Assembly (NCBI GenBank): GCA_965200205.1
Contig: CBDAUI010000001.1
Location: 1,778,664-1,842,663 of the forward strand
DNA length: 64,000 nt
From: Candidatus Poribacteria bacterium
GTDB taxonomy: Bacteria > Poribacteria > WGA-4E > WGA-3G
Reading direction: 5' to 3'
Each line of letters starts with the position of its first letter. The stretch's first letter is position 1. Under the pieces are notes generated by a model. The model did no database searches, had not been told where the DNA came from, and worked only from the letters and a program-made list of their open reading frames with translations. A program made the position numbers and the translations under genes. Below, piece after piece: positions 15,622-60,483 of this stretch.

Positions 15622-15647
15622 CAGCAAACTGGAGGCGGAGAAACAAA

Positions 15648-16409: not shown

Positions 16410-18965
<2,556 letters not shown>

Positions 18966-29087: not shown

Positions 29088-32000
29088 ATGCAATTATTCT
29101 TAAAACAGAAACAGCGGCACAAAAAATCGCGGATTGGTCTCATACTAATTGTCTCCGCTTTCTTTTTTCTCATATCGACTTTCAGAGCGTCTGCACGCGT
29201 TACCCAAGTCACATCAACCGACGGTATCACGGTTCAGTTTACATTAGCTAACCTGACTGTTTCTGAAGTTACCCGCGACAATGTTCGCTACCACGAAGTA
29301 CGCTATGCCGACTCCCGTTTCACAAGTGAACCCGGCAATCCGAAGGTTCCGGTCACACGTCTTCTGCTCGGTATACCGGTGACAGCTGACATCGATGGAA
29401 TTGACGTTTCCGCTGCACCGTCTGAAACGCGCAACGGTGTCCGTTTAGTGCCTGTCCCGATTTACGATGTGCAACAAAGAAACACCCCAGCAAAAACCCT
29501 TGAAGAACATCGGTTAGAAACCGATACTAGGCAAAAACACTTACAACACGCGGCATCACAACGTTGGGAAGAGAGGGGAAGGGCATATCAATCAAATGGT
29601 GGAAATGCGTCGTATCCGGGGTTGCCGCTTGCGCGCGTCGTCCGGGAAGGTTATATTCGGAGTCAGCGTGTCATCGCCTTAGCATTATATCCTGTGCAGT
29701 ATTTCCCGAAAACTCGGCAGTTACGCTTATATTCACGTTTCACTGTGAACATCCGTTTTTCTTACGGCAGTCAGCCATCAGCCATCGGTCTCCATCAGCA
29801 AGGAGAGGTTTTTGATAATCCGAGCACCTTTTCGCTGACTGCTGATAGCCGACAGCCGACAACCGAACCTGAGGTTTTTGAGCAAGCATTCTCTCGTCAA
29901 CTCCTCAATGCTGAACAAGCAGCGCATTTTCGGGCAGCGCGAAGAAACATCCCAGCAAAAACACCTCTGGTACCAGCAGCACCGCCGCTCTTGTCGAATG
30001 TAAGCAATACCACACGCTATAAATTGTTCGTTGAAGAGACCGGTGTCTATGCTATAACTGCAGCATCGCTCGCGCGCGACTGGGGGATAGACCTCATAGG
30101 TGCCAATCCTGCGAGGCTTCGGCTCACACACGGAGCCAGAGACGTACCGATCTATGTCAGCGGTGCAGCGGACAAAAGATTTGACCCAGAGGATGCTATC
30201 TTTTTCTTGGGACATAAACCGAAAAATCGGTATAGCCGTTGGAACATCTATTGGCTCACAGTTGACAAGAGTCAACGCATTTTGGATCGCGTGCCGCAGG
30301 TCACTGCAAACCCGACGGATCCAACGGCAACACAAGTTCCAACTTTCCGATCTAAAGTCCATTTTGAAGAAGATCACCTGACAAATAACCTCGAATTCGC
30401 CTATACAGATGGCGATAAACACGACTGGTTTACCTCGTTCGACTTCTGGTACTGGGACGGCATCAAAAACGGTGGTGACGGGGCTGAAATGCGTCTTGCG
30501 TTTCCGCTCTATGATGTCGCAAAAAGCTTTGACCCGTCACATATCTCTGTTGATTTACAGGGCGGCACACCGGTCGAACACAAAATTTTAGTTGCTATCA
30601 ACGGTGTCCGAATTGATGTCGCCGAGTGGGACTCGCAGGATTCGATCACCGTCGAGCGGACTTTGCGTACATGGGATACCTTTAAGAACAGAAGTGAAAG
30701 CGGCGAACAGAATGTTTTATCGCTTGCCCGCGTAGATTATAATGTTGATGAGGACACGACTCGGTATCCGTATCATGTCTATCTCAACCGTTTTTCTGTT
30801 GAGTATACCCGACTTTTCCGCGCTGTTGCTGACGAGTTATGGTTCAGATCGCCTGGTAGGGGCGAGGTCACCTCGCCCCTACAATCACGCACACAGCCCC
30901 CCGGCGGACGTAAACTCCAATACAGAATTGAGGCGTTCCGAGACCCAGGTGTCCACATCTTTGAAACAGATGGCACATACCTCACGGCTCAGATGCGCGG
31001 TGTTACCGTAGAACCGGATCCCGCCCGTTCAGATTTATACAATGCGCTGTTTCAGACGCTTGATACCCGAAGTGCACAGTTTATTGCGGTTTCTGATACG
31101 GCACTAAGGCAACCTCAGCGTGTCGAAGTCGTTGCGCCATCAGATTTGGCAACAGCAACGCACGGTGTCGATTATTTGGTTGTGACACACCCGAAATTCC
31201 TGCTTGCAGCGGAACGGCTATCAGCATGGCGTGCCACACCTGGTGGCGGCGGATACCGAACAAAGGTTGTCACAACTGACGATATTTATAACACCTACGG
31301 TGATGGAGCCGTCAGCCCGAAAGCGATCAAGAGTTTTCTAACACACGCCTATCAATCCTGGGCACCACCTGCACTGAGTTACGTTGTCCTCCTCGGCGAC
31401 GGCACCTTTGATTTTCGTGGTATTGATACGGAAATCCACGCCGAGCCGCCTGAACTTGACGGGTATATCCCGACGCACTACATCCGAACCGATTCCTTCG
31501 GACGTACAGCGTCAGATCACTGGTATGCGACCGTCTCCGGACACGACGAATTCACAGATTTTTATATCGGTAGACTCAGCGTCGAAACCGTTAACGAAGC
31601 CGAGGCTGTTGTCAGTAAAATCTTGGCTTACGAACAGGCACCACCAAACGACGACTGGCGCAGAAGGATCATCTCTGTTGCTGACGACGAAGTTAGCAAT
31701 TCTGGGGATTTTATATTTAAGAAGAGCCTCGACGAGATCGCGAAGGACCACACCCGATTGGGATACGAGACCGTCGAAATTTTCCTTGAGGATATTACGG
31801 ATGAGGTCGAGGCGAGACCTGATGATTTTGATGTACATCCCCAACGCCTCGCGAAAGACATGATCATTGAAGCACTCGGAGAGGGGGCTGTCCTCGCACA
31901 GTACGCCGGACACGGCGGGAATACTGTCTGGGCACACGAAATCATTTTTGACAATGTATCTGTTGATCAGGTGGAGGAAACTGACAAGGTTCCTTTTATG

Positions 32001-35000
32001 TTAGTCCTGAGTTGTTACAACGGTTATTTTGATAAACCGGGTGAACCGAGCATGGCAGAAAAGTTGTTGCGCAAAGAGAGAGGCGGGATCATCGGCATGT
32101 TGAGCGCCACACGCCTCACTTACGCCAGCGGGAACGACGCACTCAACCGTATCATCTTTGATATGCTCTTTAAACGGAACGTCCGACAACTCGGCCCTTT
32201 GAGCTTCGACTCAAAAACCGAACTTTTGATCACGGAAGGGACTGGACAGATTGATGTCATGTTAGAGTACACGCTATTTGGGGATCCGGCTCTACAGATG
32301 GCTATCGCTGATGGCGAGGTTCAACCTGCTATTGAGACGAAGACGGTCGCACCAGGGGATACACTCCGAATAGCACCCGGACATGTTCTGGATGCCGATT
32401 ATGACACAGTCAGTCAGAAGAAAAAATTTGTAAAAAATACCGATTTTGATGGAACGCTCACTGTCAAGGCTGTATTTCCCGGTAAGACAGCCGTTTCTCA
32501 AGGGGTCGCCGGGCCAGTTGAATACTACACAGGTGATGTTGTCTTGACGAAGACGCTTTCTATTAGCCGTGGGGCATATCCGACTGTTACTTTCACCGTT
32601 CCACAAAACATCGCCAGTGGCGACGCGCACGTTGAATATTACGCGCAGAGCAACACAACAGTCGCTGTTGGTGGCGATGGGTTTACTGTCAATGTCCCTA
32701 AAATTCTTGACATCCAACCCGAATTGGTCGGGGGTTTGACCGAGAACGCGACTCCGACATCTTCTTCAAAGGCACGCGTTCTCGGTCAAAAATTTCGTAT
32801 CTCTGTTCAGATTTCGGATGATAGTAGGAGCGAGGTGACCTCGCCCCTACTGGTGGTTTTGGAATGGCGGAATTTAGCGACGCGCGAGTGGGAAACTGTA
32901 CGCCTCGTTCAAGGCAGCGAGGACGGCTGGTGGACAACACCTGAACCGTTAGATGCACCTACAGACGGCTCCGCTATCCGATACGATATTCAGGTCACAG
33001 ATGCCGACGGCAATATCACCGTAAGCGATAGATTGCAATATTATCCTTATGCCTATCCGAACCTCTCTGTTGTACAGGTGCAGAGGACTGATATGATTCG
33101 TTACGGCTACAATGCTGAGCGAAAGCAGTGGTTCCTTGCAACAGATGTTCAGGTAGAAGGAGACCCTGTAGGGAATCCAGTCGAAATTAGTTTTTTTAAC
33201 GGCAATCCGGATGTTGACGAGGACATGCTTGTTGATAGCGGTGCTGTGCTTCTCGGCAGTGCACAGATACAACCCAGTGACTGGCTACAACGCACGCCGT
33301 TGATTAATTCAGGAGAGGCACCTGATGGGAAACGAGAAGAAACACCCTATCGAAAACACTATGAACCCGATCCGTTGAACGTCTTACCGATTGCGACGGC
33401 AACTTTGAACTTAACGGACCCGTTGCGTCCCGGTATACACGACATCTTTGTTTATATTGATGCAACGGAAACGGAATCGGAGCGTCCGGGTGAAGTCGTT
33501 GAAAACGACGAAGAAGATAATATCGCCTACCGGCGTATTTCTGTTGATGTCGGTGCAGTTGATGCTGCCGCTTCAGGTCAAATTATCAGTTTGGACGGAA
33601 ATTGCGTCGTTACAGTGCCATCCGGTGCGTTTCAGGATGTGGCAGTCCTTGCAGTCCGTTCTTTAGATGCGCAGCGGTTTGCTGCTATTGGATCGGAAAA
33701 CGCAGGGGGCGTACCTTCTAACCGAGATTCATTACCGATTTCCCTAAACACAATTACAGGTGTTGACGAGAACGGGCAGCCCAAGCGCGCACCGCTACCC
33801 GGTACTTCCACTTATGGGTACGAATTATCAGTAGTTAACAGTACTCAGTACGATTTTTCTGCGAAAAATCTTTCAGTTGACAGTGACAAGAGGTCTTTGG
33901 AATATCATAGCACCTCTTTAACTCAGAACCGAAAGCGCAGCGTACTGACAACTGAGAACCAGTACGCCATTGATCTGAATTTCGATTATGGAACCCTGAG
34001 AACGCAGCTTGCCGAAGAGGTGTTAGGAAGTTCGGAAGAGGCGGTTTCCGGTGGTTTAGATGTTACAGGTACACTTGACACGGCAGTTGCCGCGCGGGCA
34101 CGTGAGATGGGGGTCTACATGTTTAATTCGACACTCGGATATTGGACGCGACTTCCTTCTCAATATCTAACCGATGCTGCCGGAACACTGAGACGACGGA
34201 TACATATAACAGATATAAATGCGAAGAATGTCGGCGGTGGACAACTCCGAAATGTCCGCATCCAACCTGAAGGCGCGCGAGTCGGAAAATACGTTCTCTT
34301 TTTCACAGGACCCCGCACATACCGCGTCTTCCACGCACCTTTTGTGGACGGTGTAGACAATCCAGGAAATCCTGGCGAATTAGAAATTATTTCGCCAGTA
34401 GAGCAACTCGCAAGTTTCAGTATAGACTATCCGAACTGGACACACGGATTCGCCCTTGATATGGAACAGGATTTTGAACAACCCTTCGTATTCGGTGATG
34501 TCTGGACGTTTAACGTAACTGCGATCAGCCAAACACTGGAAGGCGGACTGAATATTGAAGGTCCCTTACAACAAGAATTACGCTGGTCCCCTGCCGGTTT
34601 CAGAGATACCAATCGGGGTACTGGCACTATCAGTTATATTGAACTCCATCGGTTAGAAACCGATGCTAGTGCAACTATGCCTGAAGATCAATGGATTGTC
34701 TTTTTCCTTACAGACACCGAATTTCAGATTGAAGGCAAGAGAACTGGGGTCTTACGTTCCGCATCTGATGGTACGCCGCTCCGTGGGACAGTCGGTCAGC
34801 CGTTCTTCTATGAACCCTACGGGTTACGGCTTCAACTAACACATGGCGAAAATCCGTTTGCACCAGGCGACAGATTCCGCTTTGAAACCCGACCTGTCGG
34901 GACGATTCGAGCGACTACCGATAGACTCGGACCGATCACACTCGTTTACAGCGACGACACCGTGCCACCAGATATCCAACTCACTATCGGTAACCAGCAG

Positions 35001-35594
35001 CATTTCGTTCCGGGTGATGCAACAGACCCTGAACCCCTTATCGGCGCAACATTAACCGATCCGAGTGGACTCGATTATCTCACCCGACCCCTATTGTTAG
35101 AACTTGGAAGGGTGTCCGGTGAATCCGAGCGCATCGCGCCAGAGGCGTATCAACTGACGCACCACCCCGGCTCGAATCAACTCGTTTTGACATATCCATC
35201 ACCAGAACTTGAACCCCGTGAGTACGAACTTCGGCTGACGGCAAGCGATGTACACGGGAACACCGACACAAAACGCATTACGTTCCGGGTTCACGACAAC
35301 CTGCAGCTGCTCTCATTTCTGAACTATCCGAACCCGTTTTCGCGTAAAACGACGCTCACATGTGAATTAACGGCACCGGCGGATTCGCTCATGGTAAAAA
35401 TCTATACGTTAAGCGGACGGATGATTCGGGAACTCTCTATCCCGGCGACTCCCGGGTTCTTGATGGTAGAGTGGGATGGCAGAGATGCGGATGGTGTTGA
35501 GGTCGCAAACGGCGTTTATTACGCTAAACTCCAGATTAAACGTGAAGGTGAAAAAGATATTACTGAGATACTCAAAATGATGAAATTGCGTTAA
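29088..35594 (+). CDS. Giant secreted peptidase C25 (gingipain-like cysteine protease) family protein with a C-terminal Por_Secre_tail/FlgD-Ig-like sorting domain.
   Basis: A signal peptide is present. A C25 N-terminal region is recognised (VDYLVVTHPKFL...WR...VVTTDDIYNTYGDG...YVVLLGDG). The catalytic His (QYAGHGGNTVWAHEIIFD) and Cys (FMLVLSCYNGYFD) match the gingipain pattern. The C-terminus reads LSFLNYPNPFSRKTTL...KIYTLSGRMIREL...WDGRDADGVEVANGVYYAKL. Confidence 0.8.
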   Translation: MQLFLKQKQRHKKSRIGLILIVSAFFFLISTFRASARVTQVTSTDGITVQFTLANLTVSEVTRDNVRYHEVRYADSRFTSEPGNPKVPVTRLLLGIPVTADIDGIDVSAAPSETRNGVRLVPVPIYDVQQRNTPAKTLEEHRLETDTRQKHLQHAASQRWEERGRAYQSNGGNASYPGLPLARVVREGYIRSQRVIALALYPVQYFPKTRQLRLYSRFTVNIRFSYGSQPSAIGLHQQGEVFDNPSTFSLTADSRQPTTEPEVFEQAFSRQLLNAEQAAHFRAARRNIPAKTPLVPAAPPLLSNVSNTTRYKLFVEETGVYAITAASLARDWGIDLIGANPARLRLTHGARDVPIYVSGAADKRFDPEDAIFFLGHKPKNRYSRWNIYWLTVDKSQRILDRVPQVTANPTDPTATQVPTFRSKVHFEEDHLTNNLEFAYTDGDKHDWFTSFDFWYWDGIKNGGDGAEMRLAFPLYDVAKSFDPSHISVDLQGGTPVEHKILVAINGVRIDVAEWDSQDSITVERTLRTWDTFKNRSESGEQNVLSLARVDYNVDEDTTRYPYHVYLNRFSVEYTRLFRAVADELWFRSPGRGEVTSPLQSRTQPPGGRKLQYRIEAFRDPGVHIFETDGTYLTAQMRGVTVEPDPARSDLYNALFQTLDTRSAQFIAVSDTALRQPQRVEVVAPSDLATATHGVDYLVVTHPKFLLAAERLSAWRATPGGGGYRTKVVTTDDIYNTYGDGAVSPKAIKSFLTHAYQSWAPPALSYVVLLGDGTFDFRGIDTEIHAEPPELDGYIPTHYIRTDSFGRTASDHWYATVSGHDEFTDFYIGRLSVETVNEAEAVVSKILAYEQAPPNDDWRRRIISVADDEVSNSGDFIFKKSLDEIAKDHTRLGYETVEIFLEDITDEVEARPDDFDVHPQRLAKDMIIEALGEGAVLAQYAGHGGNTVWAHEIIFDNVSVDQVEETDKVPFMLVLSCYNGYFDKPGEPSMAEKLLRKERGGIIGMLSATRLTYASGNDALNRIIFDMLFKRNVRQLGPLSFDSKTELLITEGTGQIDVMLEYTLFGDPALQMAIADGEVQPAIETKTVAPGDTLRIAPGHVLDADYDTVSQKKKFVKNTDFDGTLTVKAVFPGKTAVSQGVAGPVEYYTGDVVLTKTLSISRGAYPTVTFTVPQNIASGDAHVEYYAQSNTTVAVGGDGFTVNVPKILDIQPELVGGLTENATPTSSSKARVLGQKFRISVQISDDSRSEVTSPLLVVLEWRNLATREWETVRLVQGSEDGWWTTPEPLDAPTDGSAIRYDIQVTDADGNITVSDRLQYYPYAYPNLSVVQVQRTDMIRYGYNAERKQWFLATDVQVEGDPVGNPVEISFFNGNPDVDEDMLVDSGAVLLGSAQIQPSDWLQRTPLINSGEAPDGKREETPYRKHYEPDPLNVLPIATATLNLTDPLRPGIHDIFVYIDATETESERPGEVVENDEEDNIAYRRISVDVGAVDAAASGQIISLDGNCVVTVPSGAFQDVAVLAVRSLDAQRFAAIGSENAGGVPSNRDSLPISLNTITGVDENGQPKRAPLPGTSTYGYELSVVNSTQYDFSAKNLSVDSDKRSLEYHSTSLTQNRKRSVLTTENQYAIDLNFDYGTLRTQLAEEVLGSSEEAVSGGLDVTGTLDTAVAARAREMGVYMFNSTLGYWTRLPSQYLTDAAGTLRRRIHITDINAKNVGGGQLRNVRIQPEGARVGKYVLFFTGPRTYRVFHAPFVDGVDNPGNPGELEIISPVEQLASFSIDYPNWTHGFALDMEQDFEQPFVFGDVWTFNVTAISQTLEGGLNIEGPLQQELRWSPAGFRDTNRGTGTISYIELHRLETDASATMPEDQWIVFFLTDTEFQIEGKRTGVLRSASDGTPLRGTVGQPFFYEPYGLRLQLTHGENPFAPGDRFRFETRPVGTIRATTDRLGPITLVYSDDTVPPDIQLTIGNQQHFVPGDATDPEPLIGATLTDPSGLDYLTRPLLLELGRVSGESERIAPEAYQLTHHPGSNQLVLTYPSPELEPREYELRLTASDVHGNTDTKRITFRVHDNLQLLSFLNYPNPFSRKTTLTCELTAPADSLMVKIYTLSGRMIRELSIPATPGFLMVEWDGRDADGVEVANGVYYAKLQIKREGEKDITEILKMMKLR
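30856..30882. repeat. 27-nt palindromic REP-like element, in-frame inside the C25 CDS.
   Basis: GTAGGGGCGAGGTCACCTCGCCCCTAC. It encodes GRGEVTSPL. Confidence 0.8.
32824..32850. repeat. 27-nt palindromic REP-like element (inverted copy), in-frame inside the C25 CDS.
   Basis: GTAGGAGCGAGGTGACCTCGCCCCTAC. It encodes SRSEVTSPL. Confidence 0.8.
33826..33960. repeat. Intragenic, in-frame copy of the ~110-bp MITE-like element inside the C25 CDS.
   Basis: CAGTACGATTTTTCTGCGAAAAATCTTTCAGTT matches 25114-25146, with a G-C to A-T compensatory change in the hairpin stem. Confidence 0.7.
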
Positions 35595-35666: not shown

Positions 35667-36674
35667 ATGAAGAAAGGTATCATCTCCTTTATTTTTTCTA
35701 TAATGATGCTATGTGGGACTATCCAATCTGTGGATGCGAAATACACGGCGGACTTCCTGACGCTTGGTGTCGGTGCGCGCGCACTCGCTATGGGTGGCGC
35801 AGGAACAGCGTTAAGCGATAACGCTTACGCGGCTTATTGGAATCCCGCTGGGTTGGGGCAGCTGACCCGATATGAGGTCAGTTTCATGCATTCCACACTC
35901 AACGGACAGGATGCTTACGATTTTGTGAGTTACGTCCACCCACTGAAGAATCGTGGCGCGATCGGTGTCAGCTGGCTACGTGTCGGTGTTAACGATATTC
36001 CAATCACCAGCCTGCCAGTCGTGAGCCGTCCTGTCGGACCGACGAATCGTCCACAAGTGATCGGGACTTTCAACAATACAGACAACGCATTCCTACTCTC
36101 ATCTGGCTGGACAATCCCTTCCTTCAGTGGTGTCGATTTCCATCTCGGTGGTACGCTTAAGCTGCTTTATATGAGCGGCTATCGGACCACAAACGCCATC
36201 GGCGGTGGTGCTGACATCGGTTTCGTTGCAACCACTGCTGTAGAGAAACCGCATCAACTGACGCTCGGATTACAAGCGAGCGACGCTTTTCGGACAAAAA
36301 TTTATTGGAACACGCCGCCGCCATCAGCAGATATGACATCGCACACCGAGACAATATCGCCGAATCTGAAAATCGGCATTGCAACGACGCATGCCCTCGC
36401 TATTTTCCGTAGCACACTCATCTTGGCTTTGGATACCTATATCAAGGAGGGTGTTGAATTGCATGGCGGTGCCGAATGGACACTCTTCGATCTGCTTTCG
36501 CTGCGTATCGGCTTTGATGAGCGCAAGGGGATTGAAAGCGTTCGGCGTTTGACGGCAGGTGCCGGATTGAACCTACGATTCGTTACGGGTGCCGGAGCCG
36601 GATTAGACTACGCGTTTGCGAACCACCCAGCATTGGGCGGCAGCCATCGCATGTCTCTTAGGATTAGGTTTTAG
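35667..36674 (+). CDS. Outer-membrane beta-barrel protein, PorV/PorQ-family-like.
   Basis: Signal peptide. The N-terminal LTLGVGARALAMGGAGTALSDNAYAAYWNPAGLG motif is as in PorV/PorQ-family proteins. The C-terminus ends in an aromatic residue (...SLRIRF). Confidence 0.5.
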   Translation: MKKGIISFIFSIMMLCGTIQSVDAKYTADFLTLGVGARALAMGGAGTALSDNAYAAYWNPAGLGQLTRYEVSFMHSTLNGQDAYDFVSYVHPLKNRGAIGVSWLRVGVNDIPITSLPVVSRPVGPTNRPQVIGTFNNTDNAFLLSSGWTIPSFSGVDFHLGGTLKLLYMSGYRTTNAIGGGADIGFVATTAVEKPHQLTLGLQASDAFRTKIYWNTPPPSADMTSHTETISPNLKIGIATTHALAIFRSTLILALDTYIKEGVELHGGAEWTLFDLLSLRIGFDERKGIESVRRLTAGAGLNLRFVTGAGAGLDYAFANHPALGGSHRMSLRIRF

Positions 36675-36775
36675 TAGTCATCGGCTATCGACTTTCAGCA
36701 AGAAAGAGTCGTTTTATACGCTGGTTCTCCTCTTTGCTGACTGCTAACGGCTGACGGCTATCTGACTGATTGCTT
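36675..36775. repeat. Heptamer tandem repeats/MITE-like element (TGCTGAC/GGCTGAC-type), related to 61124-61242.
   Basis: TGCTGAC TGCTAAC GGCTGAC GGCTATC. It also shares CATCGGCT...CTTTCAG...AGAGT with the element at 61139-61175. Confidence 0.65.
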
Positions 36776-38951
36776 GTTCCCAATCCCAGACAAGGATAGT
36801 TCCGTCTTGTCCCGTGCTAACGAACGTCTTTCCATCCTCTGAAAAGACTAACGCCTCTACCATTGCTGTGTGTCCATGAAGTGTATTTATCTTTTCGCCA
36901 GTTTTCAAATCGAATAATTCGATTCCGCCGTTTCTAAGTCCTGCAAGAAGAACGCTGTCATCAGGAGAAAACGCTAACGATGTGGCACCGCGTGGTCCAT
37001 CTTTAAGCCGAGGTTGCTTACTGCTGCCCAACAAACGAATTTTTTGGCTACTTCCGACAGCGAGCAACGTACCGTTTGAAGAGAATGCAAGTGCTCTGAT
37101 AATATCACTATATGTGACAGTAAAATTACCGGGTCCGCCTTTCACAGCCTCTTCCATATCCTGTCCTGCAAGAAAAGGAGCTAACGCGACTCCGGTTTCA
37201 GCATCCCACATCTGTACCTTTCCACCCATGTTTCCACTGATAAGTTTCTTTCCGTCAGGCGAAAACACCAAAGCACTGATAGAAGGTGTAATATGGCGAG
37301 GCATCAAGCCTGGTGGGAATTCAAAATCACCGTTTCCATCGGCATTGTTTGGATTTTCTGGAACATTCTCTTCATCTATAAGCGAGATGTTAACGCTGTT
37401 CCCTGTCTCCGTATTCCATACATAAATTTTACCCGAGCTATCAAACGCAACTGTTTTTCCATCAGGCGAGAAAGTTATACTGTTGTTGCCCGGATTCATT
37501 ACACCATCTGTATTATTTAAGTTTGCCAACTCACGCCCTGTCTTTGTCTCCGTCAACTGAATTCGTTGACTTCCCATTCGAGAGGAGAGGGTTGCACCTG
37601 AGCCGCCTGCCTCAAAAAACATAGTGGCTTTCGCGCCGGCACTTGCGAGTTTTGTTCCATCGGGTGAAAGTGCTGAACTTTGCAATAAATCACCATGTAC
37701 AGCATCTTCGGAAGCGGTTTGTTGCGATGTGTTCAGGTCCCAAAAGTCAATGATGCCGTTAAAGGCGACACTTACGAGCGCGGAACTTTCTTCACTGAAG
37801 GATACCATTTTGATCCACTTCGTATGTTCTGTAATGCTAATAGGTAACAATCCTCCAGTTTCAGTATTCCAGAATTTGATTGTTCCATCCGTGCTGCCAC
37901 TTGCAAGCCTGCTGCCATCGGGTGAAAACGATAGGGCAATAACCCCATTTAGATGTCCGGTGAATGTTGCGATTAATTCACCCGTGCCGGCATCCCATAG
38001 ATGCACTGTTCCATCCGTGCTCCCACTCGCGAGTCGTTTGCCGTCGGAAGAGAAGGCTAATGCATTTATCCATCCTGTGTGTTTTTGTAGGATAGCCAAT
38101 TCTTCGTTCGTGTCAGTATCCCACAATCGTACCGTTTTATCTTTACTTCCACTTGCGAGTCGCTTGCCATCAGGCGAAAATTCCAAGACCAATACGTGAA
38201 CACCCTCGTCTGGGAGGAAAAACGGTTGATCGTGATTATCCTCTTGAATTGCCAACTTGCGCTCTACTGGGGGTAAAATTCCTCCGTGACCCTCAAGCGT
38301 AGACAATTTTTTACCAGTTGTTATATCCCACAATTCGATCTTCCCGACCTGACCTCCAACGGCAAATTTGTCGTGCGTGAGTGCATAAGGTTCAGGGCTG
38401 GTTCGCCGCGTCACCTTTTCCCAAGAACGGTCTTCAATATTTTTCGCATCTCCTTTTCCAGTTTCAACATCTAATCTACCGATTACGTCTGCCCAGCCTT
38501 CTAAAGTGACAAGTGCTTTTCCGTCTTCAGAGAATTGCAGTGCTGATGCCGAGCGATGACCATCAGTAAGTGATACTTTCTGACCGGTGGCTGTTTCCCA
38601 CAACTGAAGTCCGCCGCCACGAAACGAGAATTTTCCGCCGCCACTTGCGATAAATCTGCCATCGGGTGAAAATGCGATGGCTTGAGATCGCCCCGGTAAC
38701 AGGTCAATCTCTTTGCCCGTATTTAGGTCGTAAATCCATATACCGATGCTGGTTCCGACAGCGATTTGTGTGCCGTCTGGTGAGAATTGAATGGCATTAA
38801 TCCCGCCTTTTCCGAATCTTGCTTTCGCTGCTTTCGGCAGTTCCCATTTTGTATAATTTTCGGTTGTTTCGTCTATTTGTGCTTTGGCGGCGAATACAAC
38901 CGATCCGATTAGGAGTGCACATATCAGTAGAACTCTATAAAACCTATTCAT
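36744..38951 (-). CDS. Secreted WD40 repeat beta-propeller protein (paralog of the C-terminal part of the ECF-WD40 fusion).
   Basis: Signal peptide MNRFYRVLLICALLIGSVVFAAKAQ. Many WD40 repeats (FSPDG...ASGS...WD). About 85% nucleotide identity to stretches of 39094-41250. Confidence 0.8.
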   Translation of the reverse strand: MNRFYRVLLICALLIGSVVFAAKAQIDETTENYTKWELPKAAKARFGKGGINAIQFSPDGTQIAVGTSIGIWIYDLNTGKEIDLLPGRSQAIAFSPDGRFIASGGGKFSFRGGGLQLWETATGQKVSLTDGHRSASALQFSEDGKALVTLEGWADVIGRLDVETGKGDAKNIEDRSWEKVTRRTSPEPYALTHDKFAVGGQVGKIELWDITTGKKLSTLEGHGGILPPVERKLAIQEDNHDQPFFLPDEGVHVLVLEFSPDGKRLASGSKDKTVRLWDTDTNEELAILQKHTGWINALAFSSDGKRLASGSTDGTVHLWDAGTGELIATFTGHLNGVIALSFSPDGSRLASGSTDGTIKFWNTETGGLLPISITEHTKWIKMVSFSEESSALVSVAFNGIIDFWDLNTSQQTASEDAVHGDLLQSSALSPDGTKLASAGAKATMFFEAGGSGATLSSRMGSQRIQLTETKTGRELANLNNTDGVMNPGNNSITFSPDGKTVAFDSSGKIYVWNTETGNSVNISLIDEENVPENPNNADGNGDFEFPPGLMPRHITPSISALVFSPDGKKLISGNMGGKVQMWDAETGVALAPFLAGQDMEEAVKGGPGNFTVTYSDIIRALAFSSNGTLLAVGSSQKIRLLGSSKQPRLKDGPRGATSLAFSPDDSVLLAGLRNGGIELFDLKTGEKINTLHGHTAMVEALVFSEDGKTFVSTGQDGTILVWDWEQAISQIAVSR

Positions 38952-39064
38952 TTTTCCTCCATTTGTCTACGGTTTATGTAATAAATACGCAATCAATCAG
39001 TATAACTTCTGTTCAATTATACACCATTAGAATGGAGGATTGCCAAGTAGATAAGGTCTGTTTT

Positions 39065-39091
39065 GTAGGGGCTGGGTCACCCAGCCCCTAC
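39065..39091. repeat. 27-nt palindromic REP-like element (intergenic variant).
   Basis: GTAGGGGCTGGGTCACCCAGCCCCTAC. Compensatory GAGG/CCTC to TGGG/CCCA changes relative to the intragenic copies preserve the dyad. Confidence 0.75.
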
Positions 39092-39093
39092 TT

Positions 39094-42000
39094 TCACTGT
39101 TTTTCGGTGCTATGCAAACCTTTCAGGGTTTTACTCCAATCCCAGACAAGGATGGTTCCGTCTTGTCCCGTGCTGACGAGCGTTTTGCCATCGGGTGAAA
39201 AGACTAACGTCTCTACTATTGAGGTGTGTCCGTTGAGCGTACTTATTTTTTCACCAGTAGCCATATCAAATAGTTCGATGCTACCGTTTCTAAGTCCTGC
39301 GAGAAGAACGGTGTCATCAGGCGAAAACACTAAAGATTTAGCGCCACGTGGAACATCTTTAAGTTGAGGCTGCTTGCTGCCACCTAACAGACGGATTTTT
39401 CGTTCGCTTCCGACAGCGATTCGCCTGCTATCTGAAGGAAACGCAAACGTCGTAATAGGATCCCGATACCCAACGCCTTCCTTTCCAGCGAAGAAGGGTG
39501 CTAATTCAACCCCGGTTTCAGCATCCCACATCTGAACCTTTCCACCCATAGTTCCGCTGACAAGTTTTTTCCCGTCCGGTGAGAATGCTAAAGCACTAAT
39601 TTGAGGCATTTGATGGGGCATCACGTCTGGCAGCGGTGCCAAGTCGCCTTTTCCATTAGCGTTATGTTCATCTAAGATGGATACGTCAAGACGGGTGCCA
39701 GTCTCAGTGTTCCATAAATGCATTTTACCTAAACCGCCGAAGGCGACTGTTTTCCTATCAGGTGAAAAAACCATGCATGGGTACGGATTAATTCCAACGT
39801 TTACCTCATTTAATGTTGCTAATTCGTTTCCGGTACTGACATCCGTTAGACGAACTTGAGGATCCGGCATCCAAGAAGATATCATATTCCCTAGACCTGC
39901 ATCAAGGAGCATAGTCGCTTGTGCACCGACACTTGCGAGTTTTGTTCCGTCCGGTGAAAATGCTAAAGTTGGTAAAAAATCTCGATGTCCAGTATTTTGC
40001 GAACCGGTTTTCTGTGATGTTTTCAGATCCCAAAAAGTAACGATCCCATTAAATGCGACGCTTGCGAGTGTGGAACTATCTTTAAAGAAGGAAACAGCCT
40101 TCACCCACTCGGTATGCTCTGTAATATTGATCGGTAGCAAATTCCCGTTTTCCGTGTTCCAGAACTTTATTTTTCCATCAGCACTTGCACTCGCGAGTGT
40201 TTTACCATCCGGTGAAAACGATAGTGCAGAGATGCTGTTTAGATGTCCGTTGAGCGTCGTGATCAGTTCGCCTGTTTCAGTATCCCATAAATTCACTGTT
40301 TTGTCGGTGCTTCCACTTGCGAGTTTTTTCCCGTTCGGAGAGAACGCTAATGTGTTTGTCCACCCGGTGTGTTTTCCAAGAGTAGCCAATTCTTCGTTAG
40401 TATCGGTATCCCATAATCGTACCGTTTTATCTTTACTTCCGCTTGCGAGTTTTGTTCCGTCCGGCGAAAACTCAAGGACTAAAACGTGGTTGCTGCCTTG
40501 TAGTAAAAGTGGTATCTCTTCCCTAATGATAACAGGTGGAGCAACTTTCTTCTTCATCTGTAAAGGCCGAGGTCCCTTCACTTGAACTTTCTCATCTTTA
40601 TCCGCCTCAATTGTACGCGCCTTCAAATCTTTATCTGCTTCTACTATAAAAGAAGGCAGTAGTGGTGATGCCTCAATATTCTTTATTTTCGCTTTGAGGG
40701 TAGATATTTTTTTACCCGTCATTGTGTCCCATAGTTCTATTTTCCCATCTTTTCCGCCAACTGCAAATTTGTCGTGTGTAAGTGCATAGGGTTCAGGCAT
40801 AGATCTCGATTTTATCATTTCCCAAGACCGTTCCTTTATATTTTTCACATCCGCTTTTCCTGTTTCAACATCTAATCTACCAATCGAGTCTCCCTGATTT
40901 CCTAAAGTGACAAGCGTTTTCCCATCTTCAGAGAATTGCAATACTGATGCAGGAGGCGTACCGTCAGTAAGTTCCACTTTCTGACCCGTAGCAATCTCCC
41001 ACAATTGAAACCCCGCGTGAAATGTATATCTACCACCACCACTTGCGATGAATCGTCCATCAGGCGAAAAAGCGATGGATTGGCACATACCAGGGAACAT
41101 CGTAATCTCTTTTCCCGTTTTTAGGTCGTATAGCCACACACCGATATTACTACCGACAGCAATTTGTGTGCCATCTGGCGAGAATTGAAGCGCGTTGATA
41201 CCACCTTTTCCGAGCCTCGCTTTCGCCTCTTTAGGGAGCTCCCATTTTGTGTAATCGTCGGTAAGTTCATCAGCGTGTGCTTCCGCAACGAGTGCTGGTG
41301 CATCCTCGGGAAGTTGTTCCGATTTGCTGCTTCTACCCGGTATGTTGGTGCTTCCGATCTGTGTTCGCGTATCCGGTTTAGACGCAACGTTCAGCACGAT
41401 AGGTGTTTCGATCAGTTCAATTGTCATCTCTGACGCGGCATCGAGGCTATACAGCTTCTGGAAACGGAGTGCATGTTGCTGGTTTCCGATGCCCAGCATC
41501 AGCAATAGCACTGCAACCGTGGAAGCGGCGATTGCCCACGGCATAAAGGGTTTAGCACCGGAGGGTGCGGCGGGTTTAATGCGGGCGACCTCTCGCATAA
41601 TATTCTCTGTGAGGTTTGGCGTGATCTGGAAGTTTTCTAAAGCCTCACGAATCATCGGCTCCTCTTTCTTCAAGTGCTGCTGCGCACGGCGGAGGCGACT
41701 CTTGATTGTGTTTTTCGATACGCCCAAAAACGTGCCAATCTCCGTGCAGGACATCTCGGCGAAGTAGTGAAGCGTGATAACGGTGCGTTCGCTGTCCTGT
41801 AATTTTTCAAGCAGCTTCTTAACGACATCCCGTTGGGCTTCTGCGGTTGTGCGTTCATTTTCCGCAGCGACGTATCCAGAATATGTCGCCTTTTGTCGCT
41901 GCTCGTTGTCTGTTTCCTCAAGCTCCTCAAGAGGTTGCGTCCACAACCGCTTTTTACGGAGCCAAGAGCTGCAACGGTTCGCCGCGATGACATAGAGCCA

Positions 42001-42213
42001 ACTTGCGAACCGCTGAGGCTTCTTGAGTGTGGAAAGCCGCTTATATGCGTTCAGAAAAGTGTCCTGTGTGATCTCCTCAGCGATATGGAAATCCCCGATT
42101 TTACGCCATGCGAGGGCGTGCACCTGTTTCTGATATTTTCTCACCAGCACAGAAAAGGCATCATCGTCGCCTTCAAGGACGCGTTGGATGAGGTCAGCAT
42201 CGTCGTTTTTCAT
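39094..42213 (-). CDS. ECF-type sigma-70 factor fused through one TM helix to a large WD40 beta-propeller domain (ECF sigma with WD40 C-terminal extension).
   Basis: The N-terminus has sigma70 region 2 (LIQRVLEGDDDAFSVLVRKYQKQVHALAWRKIGD...EEITQDTFLNAY) and region 4 (ERTVITLHYFAEMSCTEIGTFLGVSKNTIKSRLRRA). A TM helix (AIAASTVAVLLLMLGIG) and WD40 repeats follow. GGAGG RBS. Confidence 0.8.
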   Translation of the reverse strand: MKNDDADLIQRVLEGDDDAFSVLVRKYQKQVHALAWRKIGDFHIAEEITQDTFLNAYKRLSTLKKPQRFASWLYVIAANRCSSWLRKKRLWTQPLEELEETDNEQRQKATYSGYVAAENERTTAEAQRDVVKKLLEKLQDSERTVITLHYFAEMSCTEIGTFLGVSKNTIKSRLRRAQQHLKKEEPMIREALENFQITPNLTENIMREVARIKPAAPSGAKPFMPWAIAASTVAVLLLMLGIGNQQHALRFQKLYSLDAASEMTIELIETPIVLNVASKPDTRTQIGSTNIPGRSSKSEQLPEDAPALVAEAHADELTDDYTKWELPKEAKARLGKGGINALQFSPDGTQIAVGSNIGVWLYDLKTGKEITMFPGMCQSIAFSPDGRFIASGGGRYTFHAGFQLWEIATGQKVELTDGTPPASVLQFSEDGKTLVTLGNQGDSIGRLDVETGKADVKNIKERSWEMIKSRSMPEPYALTHDKFAVGGKDGKIELWDTMTGKKISTLKAKIKNIEASPLLPSFIVEADKDLKARTIEADKDEKVQVKGPRPLQMKKKVAPPVIIREEIPLLLQGSNHVLVLEFSPDGTKLASGSKDKTVRLWDTDTNEELATLGKHTGWTNTLAFSPNGKKLASGSTDKTVNLWDTETGELITTLNGHLNSISALSFSPDGKTLASASADGKIKFWNTENGNLLPINITEHTEWVKAVSFFKDSSTLASVAFNGIVTFWDLKTSQKTGSQNTGHRDFLPTLAFSPDGTKLASVGAQATMLLDAGLGNMISSWMPDPQVRLTDVSTGNELATLNEVNVGINPYPCMVFSPDRKTVAFGGLGKMHLWNTETGTRLDVSILDEHNANGKGDLAPLPDVMPHQMPQISALAFSPDGKKLVSGTMGGKVQMWDAETGVELAPFFAGKEGVGYRDPITTFAFPSDSRRIAVGSERKIRLLGGSKQPQLKDVPRGAKSLVFSPDDTVLLAGLRNGSIELFDMATGEKISTLNGHTSIVETLVFSPDGKTLVSTGQDGTILVWDWSKTLKGLHSTEKQ

Positions 42214-42284
42214 GAGTCGCCTCCAAAAATGAATAGTTAACGTGAGCTTGATAAATACTTAAGGCAGACACATTTGCTCTTAAA

Positions 42285-42340
42285 GTCCCCCAACCCCCCT
42301 GATAAGGGGGGACATGGGGGGTTGGGGGATTTAGGGGGTT
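42285..42340. promoter_or_regulatory. G/C-tract palindrome with G-quadruplex potential in the promoter region of the ECF-WD40 gene.
   Basis: CCCCCAACCCCCC at 42287-42299 and its exact reverse complement GGGGGGTTGGGGG at 42316-42328, plus GGGGGG and GGGGG tracts. Confidence 0.5.
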
Positions 42341-42524
42341 GTATTCCTAAAAATAGTTGCTTTTTCAGAGAGTATATTGTTTTTTGCTCAATGTGCGTCC
42401 ACCTTGAAAACCTCTAATATTTTTTCAAACTGGTGTTAGTTACGTAATTGTGCGTTCAGATCTGGTGACGCTACTTAGGTGCGGAACGGGTGCATAATTC
42501 TGCAAAAAACGCTACCCCCTTCTT

Positions 42525-43643
42525 CTATTCCTCCCTGTTTTTTCGCAGCAGCACTGGGGACGTGAGGTCCCATAGGCGAACTGTTCCGTCTTCACTTCCA
42601 CTTACGAGCGTTACACCATCCGGACTAAAAGCGACACTCTTGACAGGTGCCGTGTGTCCTGTAAGTGTCGAGATGTGCGTACCTGTGGCAATATTCCAGA
42701 GTTGAATTGTCTTGTCCTCACCACCACTTGCGAGGGTTAATCCATCCAAACTAAAGGCGACACTCCACACGGTGGATGTGTGTCCCGTAAAAATTTTCAG
42801 TTGCTGTCCTGTAGTTGTATCCCAAATTCGGATTGTCTTGTCCCAACTTCCACTTGCGAGTGTCCGTCCGTCTGGACTGAAAGCGACACTAAAGACCCAA
42901 TTCGTGTGCCCTGTAAGTGTTCTCAGTTTCTCGCCGGTAGCAATATCCCACAAACGGACGATGTTTCCTGCATTGCCACTCGCTAACGTTTTTCTGCCCT
43001 TACTGAAGGCAACACTAAAGATATTTTCTGTCTCCTCAGTCAGTGCTTTCAGTCGTTTACCTGTTTCTACATCCCATAGATAAAGATTGCCGTCCTCACT
43101 GCCACTCGCAAGTATCTTGCTATCAGTGCTGAATGCGACGGTATTGACCCAATGTAAAGCGTTCGGCGCATTTTCCCGCATGTATCTGAGTTGCGCACCT
43201 GTGGCAGCGTCCCAAAGGCAAATAACCTCACTTGCATTGATCGCCCCTGCGATCATCCGTCCATCAGGACTAAACGCTATGCTGTTGATGTCCGCAGTGA
43301 AGTCCCCCTGAAAAACCACCCAGAAATTTTCCTCCCTCTCTATCTCCCGTCCTGTGACAGCATCCCAGAGTCCAACGGTATTGTTCTTGTCACTTGCGAC
43401 GATTGAACCATCCGGACTGAAAGCGACACTGTGGACACCTCTCTTAACGGCTAAATCAATAGTGATGTGAGACAAATCTTGCGGGGTTGTTGTTTTCATA
43501 ATAGGTTTTTCTTTTTCTGGCACATCTTCAGATTCCACCGGCACCGTAAAGATAAAAAGTATTATGATCCCTGTAAGGATGATCCCCGAAAAGTGATTTT
43601 TGCTGATGGAGACTGATTGCTGATGGTTGTAAATCACGGACAT
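42525..43643 (-). CDS. Membrane-anchored WD40 repeat protein.
   Basis: N-terminal TM (IILTGIIILFIFTV) followed by 7 WD40 repeats (LTGHT..V.SVAFSPDG..LASGS.D.T..LWD). Confidence 0.8.
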   Translation of the reverse strand: MSVIYNHQQSVSISKNHFSGIILTGIIILFIFTVPVESEDVPEKEKPIMKTTTPQDLSHITIDLAVKRGVHSVAFSPDGSIVASDKNNTVGLWDAVTGREIEREENFWVVFQGDFTADINSIAFSPDGRMIAGAINASEVICLWDAATGAQLRYMRENAPNALHWVNTVAFSTDSKILASGSEDGNLYLWDVETGKRLKALTEETENIFSVAFSKGRKTLASGNAGNIVRLWDIATGEKLRTLTGHTNWVFSVAFSPDGRTLASGSWDKTIRIWDTTTGQQLKIFTGHTSTVWSVAFSLDGLTLASGGEDKTIQLWNIATGTHISTLTGHTAPVKSVAFSPDGVTLVSGSEDGTVRLWDLTSPVLLRKNREE

Positions 43644-51222: not shown

Positions 51223-51253
51223 AACCGAAACATACTGTGATAGGACAAATGAA

Positions 51254-52681
51254 ATGGAAACTTTTCTGATTGTAGACGATGAAAAAAATACGCTTAAGAT
51301 GTTATCCCAAGGTCTCGAAATGCGGGGGTATCAAACCTTGACCGCTGCAAGCGGTGAGGAAGCTTTGCAACAAGCGGTGAAATCCGATGTTGATCTTGTT
51401 CTCTTGGATATCCGTATGGAGAATGGTATGGACGGTGTCCAGACACTCGTCAAGCTCCGGGAACGCTACCCGGAATTGAACGTTGTGATGATGTCAGCGC
51501 AGCAAGATATCGAGATCGCCGTTAAGACGATGGAACTCGGGGCAAAACGGTACATCACGAAGCCGATCGGTATTGATAAGATTTTATCGAGTGTCCAACC
51601 GTTTTTGGAGATATCGCGTTTATCGCAAGAGAACGAGATACTGAAGTCTCAAATTATCCCTGTTGATGAGATGGTGGGCGAAAGTGCCGCTATCAAGCAC
51701 CTCCGTTCACAGATTGATCGGGTCGCCGGTAGCAAACTCGGGGTCCTCATCTCTGGCGAGAACGGTACCGGCAAGCAGCTTGTCGCTAACGCTATTCATC
51801 AAAAGAGCAAACGCGCAGCGAAAACCTTTATTCCACTCAATTGCGCCGCTTTGCCTGATGAACTTATTGAAAGCGAACTCTTCGGACATGAGCGCGGCGC
51901 ATTCACAGGCGCGGATTCCCGAAGGCAGGGACGTTTTGAACTTGCAGACGGTGGAACCCTTTTTCTTGATGAGATCGGCGATATGAGCTTAAAGGCGCAA
52001 GCAAAAGTACTTCGCGTTATTGAGACCGGGGAAGTCGAACGGCTCGGTGGTAATCAGATTCGGGAGGTAGATGTACGGATTATCGCTGCGACTAACAAAA
52101 ATCTGCCAGAAGAAATTGAAAACGGACGGTTTCGACGGGATCTCTTCTATCGGTTGAATGTCGTACCTATTGCGGTGCCACCGCTTCGCGAACGAGCGGG
52201 AGATATTCCGGCGTTAGTCAAGTACTTCGCCGAGCGTCTACAACTCAATATGGGATCCACCCCGAAGGCTATTGATCCAGGGGCTTACACCGTGTTTCAA
52301 AGTTACCATTGGCCCGGAAACATCCGCGAGTTAAAGAATATCGTTGAACGGCTCCTTATTATGGTGAGCCGAGATGTTGTGATGGCACCCGATGTTGCAG
52401 AGGCTTTGGCATTGGTGCCACAAGTGCCTTCCGCACCTAACTTTACGGGCGATGCTACGGATTATCAAGGATCGCAGTCTCTGCCGAGTGTGGCACTTTA
52501 CAAACCAGGAACCCCGTTGAGCCAGATGATGGATACTGCTGAAGCGCAGTGTATTCTCACGGCTTTAGAAGAATTTAACTGGAATATCCGGCGGACCGCC
52601 GAGGCGTTAGAGGTCGAGCGGAGCAACTTGTACAAAAAAATGAACAAGTACGGTATTTCACGACCGAGTTCCGAAGACTAA
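51254..52681 (+). CDS. Sigma-54-dependent response regulator (NtrC/PilR family: REC, AAA+, HTH).
   Basis: REC domain (LIVDDE...D), [15 protein letters not shown], the GAFTGA motif (ERGAFTGA) and a C-terminal Fis-type HTH. Confidence 0.85.
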
Positions 52682-59812: not shown

Positions 59813-60483
59813 GAATTACCAAAATTGAGATTAAAAATTTTAGAGCTTTTTACGGGGCATATCAGATTGACCTGCACAGGGCGGGAAAAAATTTGCTTGT
59901 TTACGGCGAAAATGGCAGTGGAAAAACTTCACTATATCAGGCGTTGAAAAGATTCCTTGAATCTAGCGAGGGAGGTCACCAATTTAAACCCTACCAAAAC
60001 ATCTTTAACTCGGATGACGGATATATCAAATTGAACCTCCGAGCTGATGCACAGTCAAAACAAGGCACTTATGAATGGTCTGAAACTGTTAAGGACCAGA
60101 CAAATGAGGAACTTCTGATTGAGGCATCAAGATCAAAAGGTTTCCTGGATTATCTTGATGCAAACGACTACAAAGCCTGCGCAATTTACCTGCGTACCGC
60201 TTTTGAAGCGGCAATCAAGCAATATTGTGAGAAAAAGGATCTCGCCATTAAATATCGTGAGAATCCGAAGGACTTGAAAAGTGAAGACTTCTGGGTGCCT
60301 ATAAAAATGGAGAGGGATGGAACGGGTCCTCTGCTTTTAGATCTAAGGATTGTTGATCAAATTGAACAGGCTCGGAAATTTATCCTAAACGAACTTAGTC
60401 ATGCGACCTTTGTGAACATCTACAGAAAAGAACTCGAGGATGCCATTGAAGCGGTGGAACGTCTTAAAATTGCATTACAATAG
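59809..60483 (+). CDS. Truncated P-loop ATPase (SMC/RecF-like N-terminal domain only).
   Basis: MRITKIEIKNFRAFYGAYQIDL...VYGENGSGKTSLYQAL. There is no Walker B or ABC signature. It shares an ATGA start/stop overlap with the upstream gene. Confidence 0.55.
   Translation: MRITKIEIKNFRAFYGAYQIDLHRAGKNLLVYGENGSGKTSLYQALKRFLESSEGGHQFKPYQNIFNSDDGYIKLNLRADAQSKQGTYEWSETVKDQTNEELLIEASRSKGFLDYLDANDYKACAIYLRTAFEAAIKQYCEKKDLAIKYRENPKDLKSEDFWVPIKMERDGTGPLLLDLRIVDQIEQARKFILNELSHATFVNIYRKELEDAIEAVERLKIALQ

Follow-up and report, generated by a model that had tools for sequence, protein, structure and literature searches.

Three genes for WD40-repeat proteins lie next to each other on the minus strand of a 64,000-nucleotide stretch of a Candidatus Poribacteria genome (GenBank assembly GCA_965200205.1, contig CBDAUI010000001.1, positions 1,778,664 to 1,842,663), which is called the window below. 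The middle gene, A, is predicted to encode an extracytoplasmic function (ECF) sigma factor joined in one polypeptide to a single transmembrane (TM) helix and an extracytoplasmic WD40 sensor. Gene B, downstream, encodes a putative secreted paralog of the sensor, and gene C, upstream, a further putative exported WD40 protein. An initial annotation of the window had proposed three co-directional open reading frames (ORFs) at this place, and their coordinates match exactly. For comparison, a scan of species-representative genomes yielded 36 loci, 35 of them from Poribacteria, which are cited by number (L001 and so on). The features of the locus are as follows.

42525-43643, minus strand: gene C (372 aa), predicted exported seven-bladed WD40 protein assigned to the NamZ-AnmK operon; seven WD40 matches and overlap with AnmK.
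42464-42501, minus strand: conserved putative ECF-type promoter of gene A, found as a motif match; -35 TGCACCC at 42494-42488, 17-nt spacer, -10 CGTCAC at 42470-42465.
42236-42438, minus strand: lineage-specific 203-bp insertion in the 5′ untranslated region (UTR) of gene A, absent from L002, L003 and L005.
39094-42213, minus strand: gene A, predicted membrane-tethered ECF sigma factor with a WD40 double propeller; intact ORF of 1039 aa.
41659-42213, minus strand: predicted cytoplasmic ECF sigma core, aa 1-185 (sigma2 and sigma4), from Pfam, TIGR02937 and the SigW match.
41551-41658, minus strand: juxtamembrane segment, aa 186-221 (EPMIREALENFQITPNLTENIMREVARIKP...), near-invariant across paralogs.
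41479-41550, minus strand: single predicted TM helix, aa 222-245; Kyte-Doolittle 19-residue maximum 2.06.
41254-41478, minus strand: predicted periplasmic stalk and variable linker, ending ALVAEA/HADE, from the paralog alignment.
39097-41253, minus strand: predicted extracytoplasmic WD40 domain of 14 blades, modeled as two seven-bladed propellers (Pfam, AlphaFold2, Foldseek).
40495-40680, minus strand: Lys-rich, predicted disordered insert between blades 4 and 5, about aa 512-573 (62 aa), with a predicted local distance difference test score (pLDDT) below 50.
39065-39091, no strand assigned: 27-nt palindromic element directly 3′ of the gene A stop codon; perfect 13-bp arms, -25.8 kcal/mol.
39016-39046, minus strand: putative sigma70-like promoter of gene B, TTGGCA, 19-nt spacer, TATAAT, conserved in orthologous intergenic regions.
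36744-38951, minus strand: gene B, predicted secreted 735-aa WD40 double-propeller paralog without sigma core, TM helix or stalk, from its alignment to A.
38880-38951, minus strand: putative signal peptide of B (MNRFYRVLLICALLIGSVVFAAKA/Q); hydrophobic aa 1-27, the cleavage site being a heuristic call.

The sigma factor part of gene A is compact. Only region 2 and region 4 families match aa 1-185, the sigma1 and sigma3 regions being absent from this core of about 180 aa. Sigma70_r2 (aa 23-89, 55.1 bits, cutoff 24), Sigma70_r4 (aa 134-183, 45.5 bits, cutoff 24.1) and Sigma70_ECF (35.4 bits, cutoff 21.1) all exceed their Pfam cutoffs, as does TIGR02937 sigma70-ECF in NCBIfam (98.7 bits against a cutoff of 42.9), and the complete ECF regions 2 and 4 claimed for the protein are thus present. 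None of the specific NCBIfam equivalogs passed for this sigma factor, the best being SigW with 107.8 against 209 bits, and the closest solved structure to the core is likewise SigW of Bacillus subtilis (5wuq; 91.7 bits, alignment over aa 9-184). Sigma2 and sigma4 domains, a compact core and an autoregulatory-type bipartite promoter with CGT in its -10 element and a spacer of about 16-17 nt (described below) are the features of an ECF (group 4) member of the sigma-70 family.

In an alignment of 46 paralogs, C81 of sigma2 is invariant, region 2.4 and the sigma4 recognition helix are near-invariant, and conservation extends past sigma4 through the juxtamembrane segment, the TM helix and the stalk. 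The 36-aa juxtamembrane segment contains EEPMIREALxNFQITPNLTENIMREI; in the TM helix, P225 is invariant and W226, S231 and G241 are near-invariant. The stalk is conserved to about aa 287, after which a variable linker runs to an AxA-like motif (ALVAEA/HADE) just before the propeller. The counterpart of this motif in B and in L027_11281, a sigma-less relative that is described below, is the region of signal-peptide cleavage. The sole hydrophobic segment of the gene A product is aa 222-245, in agreement with the one TM helix first noted there. Its N-terminal flank is the more positively charged, and the 61%-identical WD40 domain of B carries a preceding signal peptide. The single helix, the charge of its flank and the signal peptide of B all support a cytoplasmic ECF sigma factor, a single TM helix and an extracytoplasmic WD40 sensor in one polypeptide, which is the arrangement that had been proposed for this gene.

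The sensor had been described as one WD40 propeller of about 750 aa. Its WD40 character is borne out by Pfam (261 bits), but a single propeller is not. By eye, 14 FSPDG-type blades can be counted, and an AlphaFold2 model of the domain, built with 45 homologs, contains 55 beta strands and is of moderate confidence (mean pLDDT 67, predicted template modeling score 0.50). The best Foldseek matches are 2ymu (E 3.6e-38) and two-propeller proteins such as Aip1 (1nr0), and 2ymu is also the best sequence match of the sensor (phmmer, 663 bits). Taken together, the blades, the strands and the double-propeller matches point to two seven-bladed propellers with four-stranded blades. The 62-aa Lys-rich insert that separates blades 4 and 5 is variable among homologs.

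A frameshift or misassembly near 41.5 kb, fusing a sigma gene with a WD40 gene, had been named as the observation that could undo this picture. Split genes do occur in the family: the orthologs in L001/L025 and in L002 are called as two ORFs, and L018 and L032 have splits in related family genes. However, the split positions differ between loci; all are internal to the sigma core or to the WD40 part, and none coincides with the sigma-TM-WD40 junction. Moreover, at least 35 intact sigma-TM-WD40 ORFs are found across 28 independent Poribacteria loci, mostly of 965-1036 aa with two of about 1250 aa, and these loci come from short-read metagenome-assembled genomes (MAGs), long-read chromosomes or MAGs, and the WGA-3G single-cell genome. 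A protein identical to the 1039-aa product of gene A (P0286) is present in public data on a 3.5-Mb contig, and all named homologs of this product are from Candidatus Poribacteria. Because of these intact homologs and the identical public protein, we reject an assembly artifact as extremely improbable; the fusion is real and ancestral.

The split genes in long-read MAG chromosomes lie at L001 11479-11578, L002 11326-11469, L018 12463-12972 and L032 9763-12704. In the L001 ortholog, the frameshift falls within the variable Lys-rich loop, where a short out-of-frame duplication makes GHTHGM readable in two frames. The splits in these four loci are either real pseudogenes or consensus errors.

Gene A is one member of a large family whose genes share an upstream element. 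When the 250 nt upstream of 48 sigma-module genes were lined up, a bipartite element, tTgCAGAATTATGCACCCGtTtcAc.ccTaagtaGCGTCAC, was found to be conserved, with a -35 TGCACCC and a -10 CGTCAC that are invariant or nearly so and a 17-nt spacer that varies in sequence. TGCACCC-N17-CGTCAC is present in 40 of the 48 regions, the distance from promoter to ATG being fixed at 53-55 or 74-77 nt, and most of the regions without a match either have a degenerate form of the element or lie before the second gene of a tandem pair. The copy at 42464-42501 is the sole match within the window. A further 618 kb of Poribacteria loci, DNA that is strongly biased to the neighborhoods of family genes rather than representing whole genomes, contains no convincing site away from such genes, the ten looser matches having no extended context and being chance-like. 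Comparison of a 14-base pattern with metagenome contigs (gut, soil and others) listed 120 loci, all chance-like and none with a sigma module or the extended motif; the pattern is too short for such DNA. Hence, of the ECF promoter originally suggested, the copy upstream of the gene itself is found, and copies at targets outside the family are not, in the window and the 618 kb. Given the shared motif and the near-invariant region 2.4 and sigma4 recognition helix, all family copies probably read the same promoter, and we infer that it is recognized by the gene A sigma factor, which would amount to autoregulation.

In gene A, promoter and ribosome-binding site are separated by the 203-bp insertion, which is flanked by GTAAC and GTTAAC, is single-copy among all sequences examined and contains a G-tract hairpin (42283-42332, -33.6 kcal/mol). 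This spot in the 5′ UTR may be a hotspot, since L008 carries an unrelated insertion at the same place.

The extent of the family was assessed by an exhaustive search with aa 1-250, in which the representatives are those of 50%-identity clusters. At a threshold of E<=1e-30, 283 cluster representatives were obtained, with lengths up to 1377 aa. The best 150 of the 283 all have E<=1.6e-54 and most align over about aa 1-245, with exactly one predicted TM segment at aa 200-250 in 119 of these 150; some lower-ranked or truncated representatives align only through about aa 150-217. What follows the module is highly diverse. Among 134 C-termini, about 40 are of the WD40 class and about 46 are BNR/sortilin/YCF48-like propellers. 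Smaller classes consist of leucine-rich repeat (LRR) arrays, CarboxypepD_reg, Big_5, Trypsin_2 with TPR, Laminin_G_3, AhpC/redoxin, Reg_prop and PD40/DPPIV_N, and several classes are without a Pfam match. In Poribacteria, one promoter-sigma-TM-stalk cassette is joined to more than ten kinds of extracytoplasmic domain. Sigma-core identity is 55-66% within a sensor class versus 54-57% between classes, the nearest sigma-core neighbor shares the sensor class in 67 of 102 cases, and tandem arrays of up to five family genes exist (L019, L026 and L032). ECF sigma factors that share an extension type have been found to cluster together (PMC7826278). The Poribacteria family contradicts this rule of one extension type per ECF group, because the same sigma clade carries many extensions other than WD40.

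The homologs are annotated at NCBI as 'sigma-70 family RNA polymerase sigma factor' or as 'WD40 repeat domain-containing protein', and a literature search found no paper connecting Poribacteria, sigma factors and WD40. The architecture of the single gene is already known in kind; what is new is the modular family with its shared promoter and sigma-less derivatives.

Two further observations concern the family. In several genomes, a short soluble ECF sigma factor of 199-213 aa, which shares about 28-31% identity with the module, is encoded a few kilobases upstream of family genes, at L001 7530-8129, L018 3217-3858, L022 813-1454, L024 4497-5120, L029 2584-3198 and L030 1026-1667. This placement could be fortuitous, or the protein could act on the shared promoter as an additional regulator. 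In addition, the window holds a stand-alone 320-aa Sortilin-Vps10/BNR propeller (25218-26180, plus strand), of the same domain type as the largest non-WD40 sensor class.

Gene B had been presented as a tandem WD40 paralog with a signal peptide and no sigma domain, and this description is accurate: amino-acid identity between B and the WD40 part of A is 61% over about 730 aa, and B has a signal-peptide-like N-terminus. The accompanying statements, that the two genes are about 85% identical in nucleotides and were recently duplicated, do not agree with the sequences. Nucleotide identity is 70.4% over 712 aligned codons and 52% at third positions; BLASTN gives 70-75%, and the best 150-nt window reaches 81%. 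Orthologs of B are also widespread, with at least seven species represented; they are present in seven loci with 77-85% identity (L001, L003, L006, L009, L012 and L013) or 65% (L016). A recent duplication of A and B is rejected on these grounds. B is absent from L004, L005, L008, L010, L015 and L031, so that about half of the syntenic loci lack it; its place is taken by a transposase in L002 and by a second full sigma-WD40 gene in L007.

The origin of B can be traced through its relatives. In a neighbor-joining tree of the WD40 parts, which has no bootstrap and is indicative only, the B clade is nested within the sigma-fused clade of the locus, and its sister is L027_11281. The first residue of this protein is precisely the conserved juxtamembrane Met, and the TM helix is retained. 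It has neither sigma core nor stalk, and runs directly into ...SVEA/QTGE...WD40. When aligned, the signal peptide of B corresponds to the TM helix plus AxA motif of L027_11281 and of sigma-fused relatives. This correspondence and the intermediate itself outline a derivation series from sigma-helix-TM-stalk-WD40 through helix-TM-WD40 to signal peptide-WD40. B is thus of old descent: it derives from a tandem sigma-WD40 copy, has shed the sigma core and stalk, and retains a TM-derived signal peptide. Upstream of B, TTGGCA-N19-TATAAT is preserved between A and B in L003, L006, L009, L012 and L013 as well; with its 19-nt spacer this promoter is beyond the range of the sigma70 promoter scan, which is limited to spacers of 18 nt. 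The ECF motif is absent upstream of B in the scan of the window.

Sigma-less WD40 double-propeller proteins with a juxtamembrane helix and a TM helix are encoded at L027 11281-13482, at L017 12187-14715 and near position 7875 in L034 and L036. This is the layout of a free-standing single-pass anti-sigma factor, and such proteins are natural intermediates between the sigma-fused and the secreted forms.

Gene C has a different affiliation. Its start overlaps the stop codon of AnmK by 10 nt here, in L011 and in L017, and because of this overlap we assign C to the NamZ-AnmK transcription unit rather than to the unit of A. By a domain search of the window, AnmK and NamZ are peptidoglycan-recycling enzymes. 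Gene C is absent from L006, L007, L009, L010, L012, L015, L027 and L031, and thus from several loci that carry A. The initial annotation had it as a third TM-anchored, seven-bladed WD40 protein; seven WD40 matches and a hydrophobic N-terminus are indeed present, whereas the TM anchor is uncertain because the L001 ortholog has a classic signal peptide.

It had further been stated that the genes are separated only by palindromes. Palindromes do occur between them, one at 39065-39091 and one with G/C tracts at 42283-42332. However, the intergenic regions hold the conserved ECF-type and sigma70-like promoters, and the palindromes are lineage-specific insertions, that at 39065-39091 being absent from orthologous intergenic regions.

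The element at 39065-39091 is a variant of a 27-nt palindrome, GTAGGGGCGAGGT-N-ACCTCGCCCCTAC, that occurs twice in frame in the Peptidase_C25 ORF at 29088-35594 (30856-30882 and 32824-32850). There the copies encode ...GRGEVTSPLQ... and ...SRSEVTSPLL..., at sites where the orthologs in L005, L008 and L031 are gapped. The palindrome resembles small mobile palindromes that invade coding sequence, for example the Rickettsia palindromic elements.

These data bear on the proposal that the three genes form a self-contained envelope module, with C as an anchored WD40 protein, A as the sensor-sigma and B as a soluble competitor or co-receptor, all acting together. The products of all three are predicted extracytoplasmic WD40 proteins encoded on the same strand, C adjoins A in eight loci and A adjoins B in at least seven, and a B protein so similar to the A sensor could bind the same ligand. 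Nevertheless, B is missing from six loci and replaced by a transposase in L002, and it has its own conserved sigma70-like promoter without the ECF motif. C is translationally coupled to AnmK and absent from eight loci, and other family members stand alone or in sigma-only arrays (L019, L026 and L032). A joint function of the three proteins is therefore improbable, and with B missing from about half of the syntenic loci and C in the NamZ-AnmK operon, the self-contained three-gene module cannot be upheld.

The explanation that we favor, with a probability of roughly 60% for its parts taken jointly, is that A is a one-component, single-pass ECF sigma factor activated by proteolytic release, that B is an old derivative of such a gene and that C is part of the NamZ-AnmK operon. 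The architecture and topology, the conserved promoter, the modularity of the family and the descent of B come from the comparisons described above; proteolytic release is the step that we infer. The template for it is IutY, since this sole characterized fused system works by proteolysis, its fused sigma/anti-sigma protein being released via Prc and RseP (PMC8999054). In gene A, the tethered sigma factor would be inactive until the propeller binds a ligand or is otherwise perturbed, whereupon the conserved stalk would be cut. A second cut would then fall within the membrane, in the TM helix, whose cytoplasmic half holds the invariant Pro and small or hydroxyl residues. The freed sigma factor would then join core RNA polymerase and could activate its own promoter and those of its paralogs, plus a further regulon. 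The layout looks like an ancestral fusion of a sigma and an anti-sigma gene. With its order of helix, TM and sensor, the L027-type protein resembles an anti-sigma factor of the separate, single-pass kind, which supports such an origin and a cis-inhibitory role of the juxtamembrane helix.

Several points weigh against this explanation. No anti-sigma family was found with Pfam at E<=10 in aa 186-320 or in the N-terminus of the L027 protein, and the 36 aa between sigma4 and the TM helix are too short for a class I anti-sigma domain. An AlphaFold2 model of the N-terminal 330 aa, in which the question was whether the juxtamembrane segment packs on sigma2/sigma4, was based on a shallow alignment (60-90% identity) and reached a mean pLDDT of 53.6, with the TM helix and stalk unmodeled. 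The 64-kb window holds no detectable gene for a site-1 or site-2 protease, and none was found linked to the locus; scans of the window and the 618 kb of loci with position weight matrices and regular expressions found no target promoters other than those of family genes. The 203-bp insertion with its strong hairpin could impair expression of gene A. Finally, because several orthologs are split by frameshifts (L001/L025, L002, L018 and L032), the gene may be dispensable in some lineages.

Some of these points would fit a sigma factor that is active while tethered. Such a protein would recruit core RNA polymerase to membrane-near promoters without proteolysis, like ToxR or CadC, and the propeller would modulate it through conformation or oligomerization. 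The absence of a detected anti-sigma domain between sigma4 and the TM helix, the flexible 36-aa tether and the lack of a conserved protease partner at the locus are what one might expect in that case. However, our literature search gave no documented membrane-tethered active sigma factor, and IutY, the sole characterized fused system, requires proteolysis (PMC8999054). The strongly conserved stalk and TM helix, with its invariant Pro and small residues, also suit a processing substrate better than a passive anchor, and we regard activity in the tethered state as unlikely. It is also conceivable that the cassette is an expression and export device, in which the exported repeat domain is the effector, the sigma factor has no separate regulon and every cleavage releases a single sigma factor, which boosts production of the family. 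This would explain why the motif occurs only upstream of family genes in the 682 kb examined, and why paralogs share both the motif and near-invariant recognition helices. The exported domains belong to eukaryote-like repeat types that are discussed as host-interaction factors of sponge symbionts (PMC8163846). Pure self-amplification is nonetheless quite improbable, as the design has no known precedent and the searched DNA is strongly biased toward family-gene neighborhoods.

A broader possibility arises from the one promoter and one DNA specificity that all copies would share. The portable cassette of about 1 kb, recombined onto dozens of exported domains, among them many eukaryote-like WD40, LRR, TPR and BNR repeats, might form a cross-activating array that feeds extracellular, possibly host, cues into one program. 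We offer this only tentatively. If it is true, many repeat proteins of sponge symbionts would be receptors rather than secreted effectors.

ECF sigma factors fused to membrane-spanning sensors are predicted in several phyla and almost none have been studied. The Poribacteria family provides a natural experiment, in which one sigma core and one promoter have been coupled to more than ten unrelated extracytoplasmic domains, and it gives a concrete, testable promoter motif. Its sigma-fused, anti-sigma-like and secreted forms are natural intermediates and illustrate how a sensor can turn into a secreted protein and vice versa. In sponge symbiosis, the WD40 and LRR proteins that abound in Poribacteria may act as signal receptors with a direct link to transcription. 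As a tool for synthetic biology, the family suggests a modular one-protein transmembrane switch.

The remainder of the window contains several other systems. A 2168-aa gingipain-like protein with Propeptide_C25, Peptidase_C25 and a C-terminal FlgD_ig domain (29088-35594, plus strand) is followed by a UPF0164/PorV-like outer-membrane protein (35667-36674, plus strand). This pair is convergent to the sigma-WD40 locus and syntenic in L001-L017, L027 and L031, and it hints at a cargo and shuttle of a type IX secretion system-like pathway in Poribacteria. A cluster of the replication-origin type, with dnaA, a recF-like SMC_N gene, dciA, gyrB and gyrA, lies at 12486-21677 (plus strand); the GC content falls to 0.42 at 12-16 kb, and there is no dnaN between dnaA and recF. 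On the same strand are a HAMP histidine kinase with a sigma54-dependent response regulator (49165-52681), a 903-aa fusion of TonB_C and FGE-sulfatase (54022-56733), and a TPR protein with a TaqI_C specificity domain followed by an AAA_15/AAA_23 ATPase (58169-60483), possibly a pair with a defence-like role. No Rfam or tRNA matches were obtained in the 64-kb window.

Among the closest known systems, the planctomycetal WD40-extension sigma factors ECF01-Gob and ECF57 remain uncharacterized, and ECF01-Gob is said to have a TM helix before its WD40 repeats. Like gene A, they combine an ECF core with a long WD40-like C-terminal extension (Jogler et al. 2012 for ECF01-Gob; Casas-Pastor et al. 2021 for ECF57). 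Like the gene A family, they occur as multiple paralogs per genome, ECF57 with an average of 5.3 copies per planctomycetal genome (PMC7826278). The planctomycetal precedent cited in the initial annotation thus exists, both in the WD40-like C-terminal extensions of ECF57 (PMC8999054) and in the ECF sigma factors with WD40 domains reported from Planctomycetes (PMC8567305). Unlike these proteins, gene A comes from Poribacteria, and the best 150 representatives of its family all carry a juxtamembrane, TM and stalk module of the Poribacteria type. TIGR02989, a Rhodopirellula/Verrucomicrobium family, scores 70.4 bits against gene A, with a cutoff of 124.55. Two conserved cysteines, in sigma2 and sigma4, have been proposed as a feature of ECF57 (PMC8999054). 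If positional equivalence to ECF57 is assumed, the first of these, C81, is invariant in the gene A family, whereas C155 of sigma4, which gene A has, is replaced in paralogs such as P0023 and a 610-aa protein of L001, so that the feature would be shared only by half.

Other systems share parts of the design. IutY of Pseudomonas putida (ECF243) likewise has an N-terminal ECF sigma factor, one TM helix and a periplasmic C-terminal domain in a single polypeptide. However, the anti-sigma part of IutY is recognizably of the FecR type, and the protein acts in iron signaling together with a TonB-dependent receptor, whereas gene A has no detectable anti-sigma or FecR domain and carries a WD40 double propeller. 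The actinobacterial groups ECF48, ECF52 and ECF53 (for example SCO4117) have TM and extracytoplasmic extensions for which proteolytic activation is predicted (PMC8999054). They resemble gene A in that the C-terminal extension of an ECF sigma factor holds TM helices and extracytoplasmic domains, and differ from it in that these extensions include an anti-sigma-like zinc finger and regions that bind carbohydrate or are rich in proline; no such element was detected in gene A. SigW-RsiW of B. subtilis provides the closest solved sigma factor by sequence and a similar logic of a single-pass membrane partner. That system consists of two proteins, RsiW having a full cytoplasmic anti-sigma domain, whereas gene A encodes one chain with 36 aa between sigma4 and the membrane. 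Finally, 2ymu, a highly repetitive WD40 protein of Nostoc punctiforme, is a 14-repeat double propeller like the sensor of gene A. It is a stand-alone protein without a sigma or membrane module, whereas the gene A sensor has degenerate blades and a 62-aa disordered insert.

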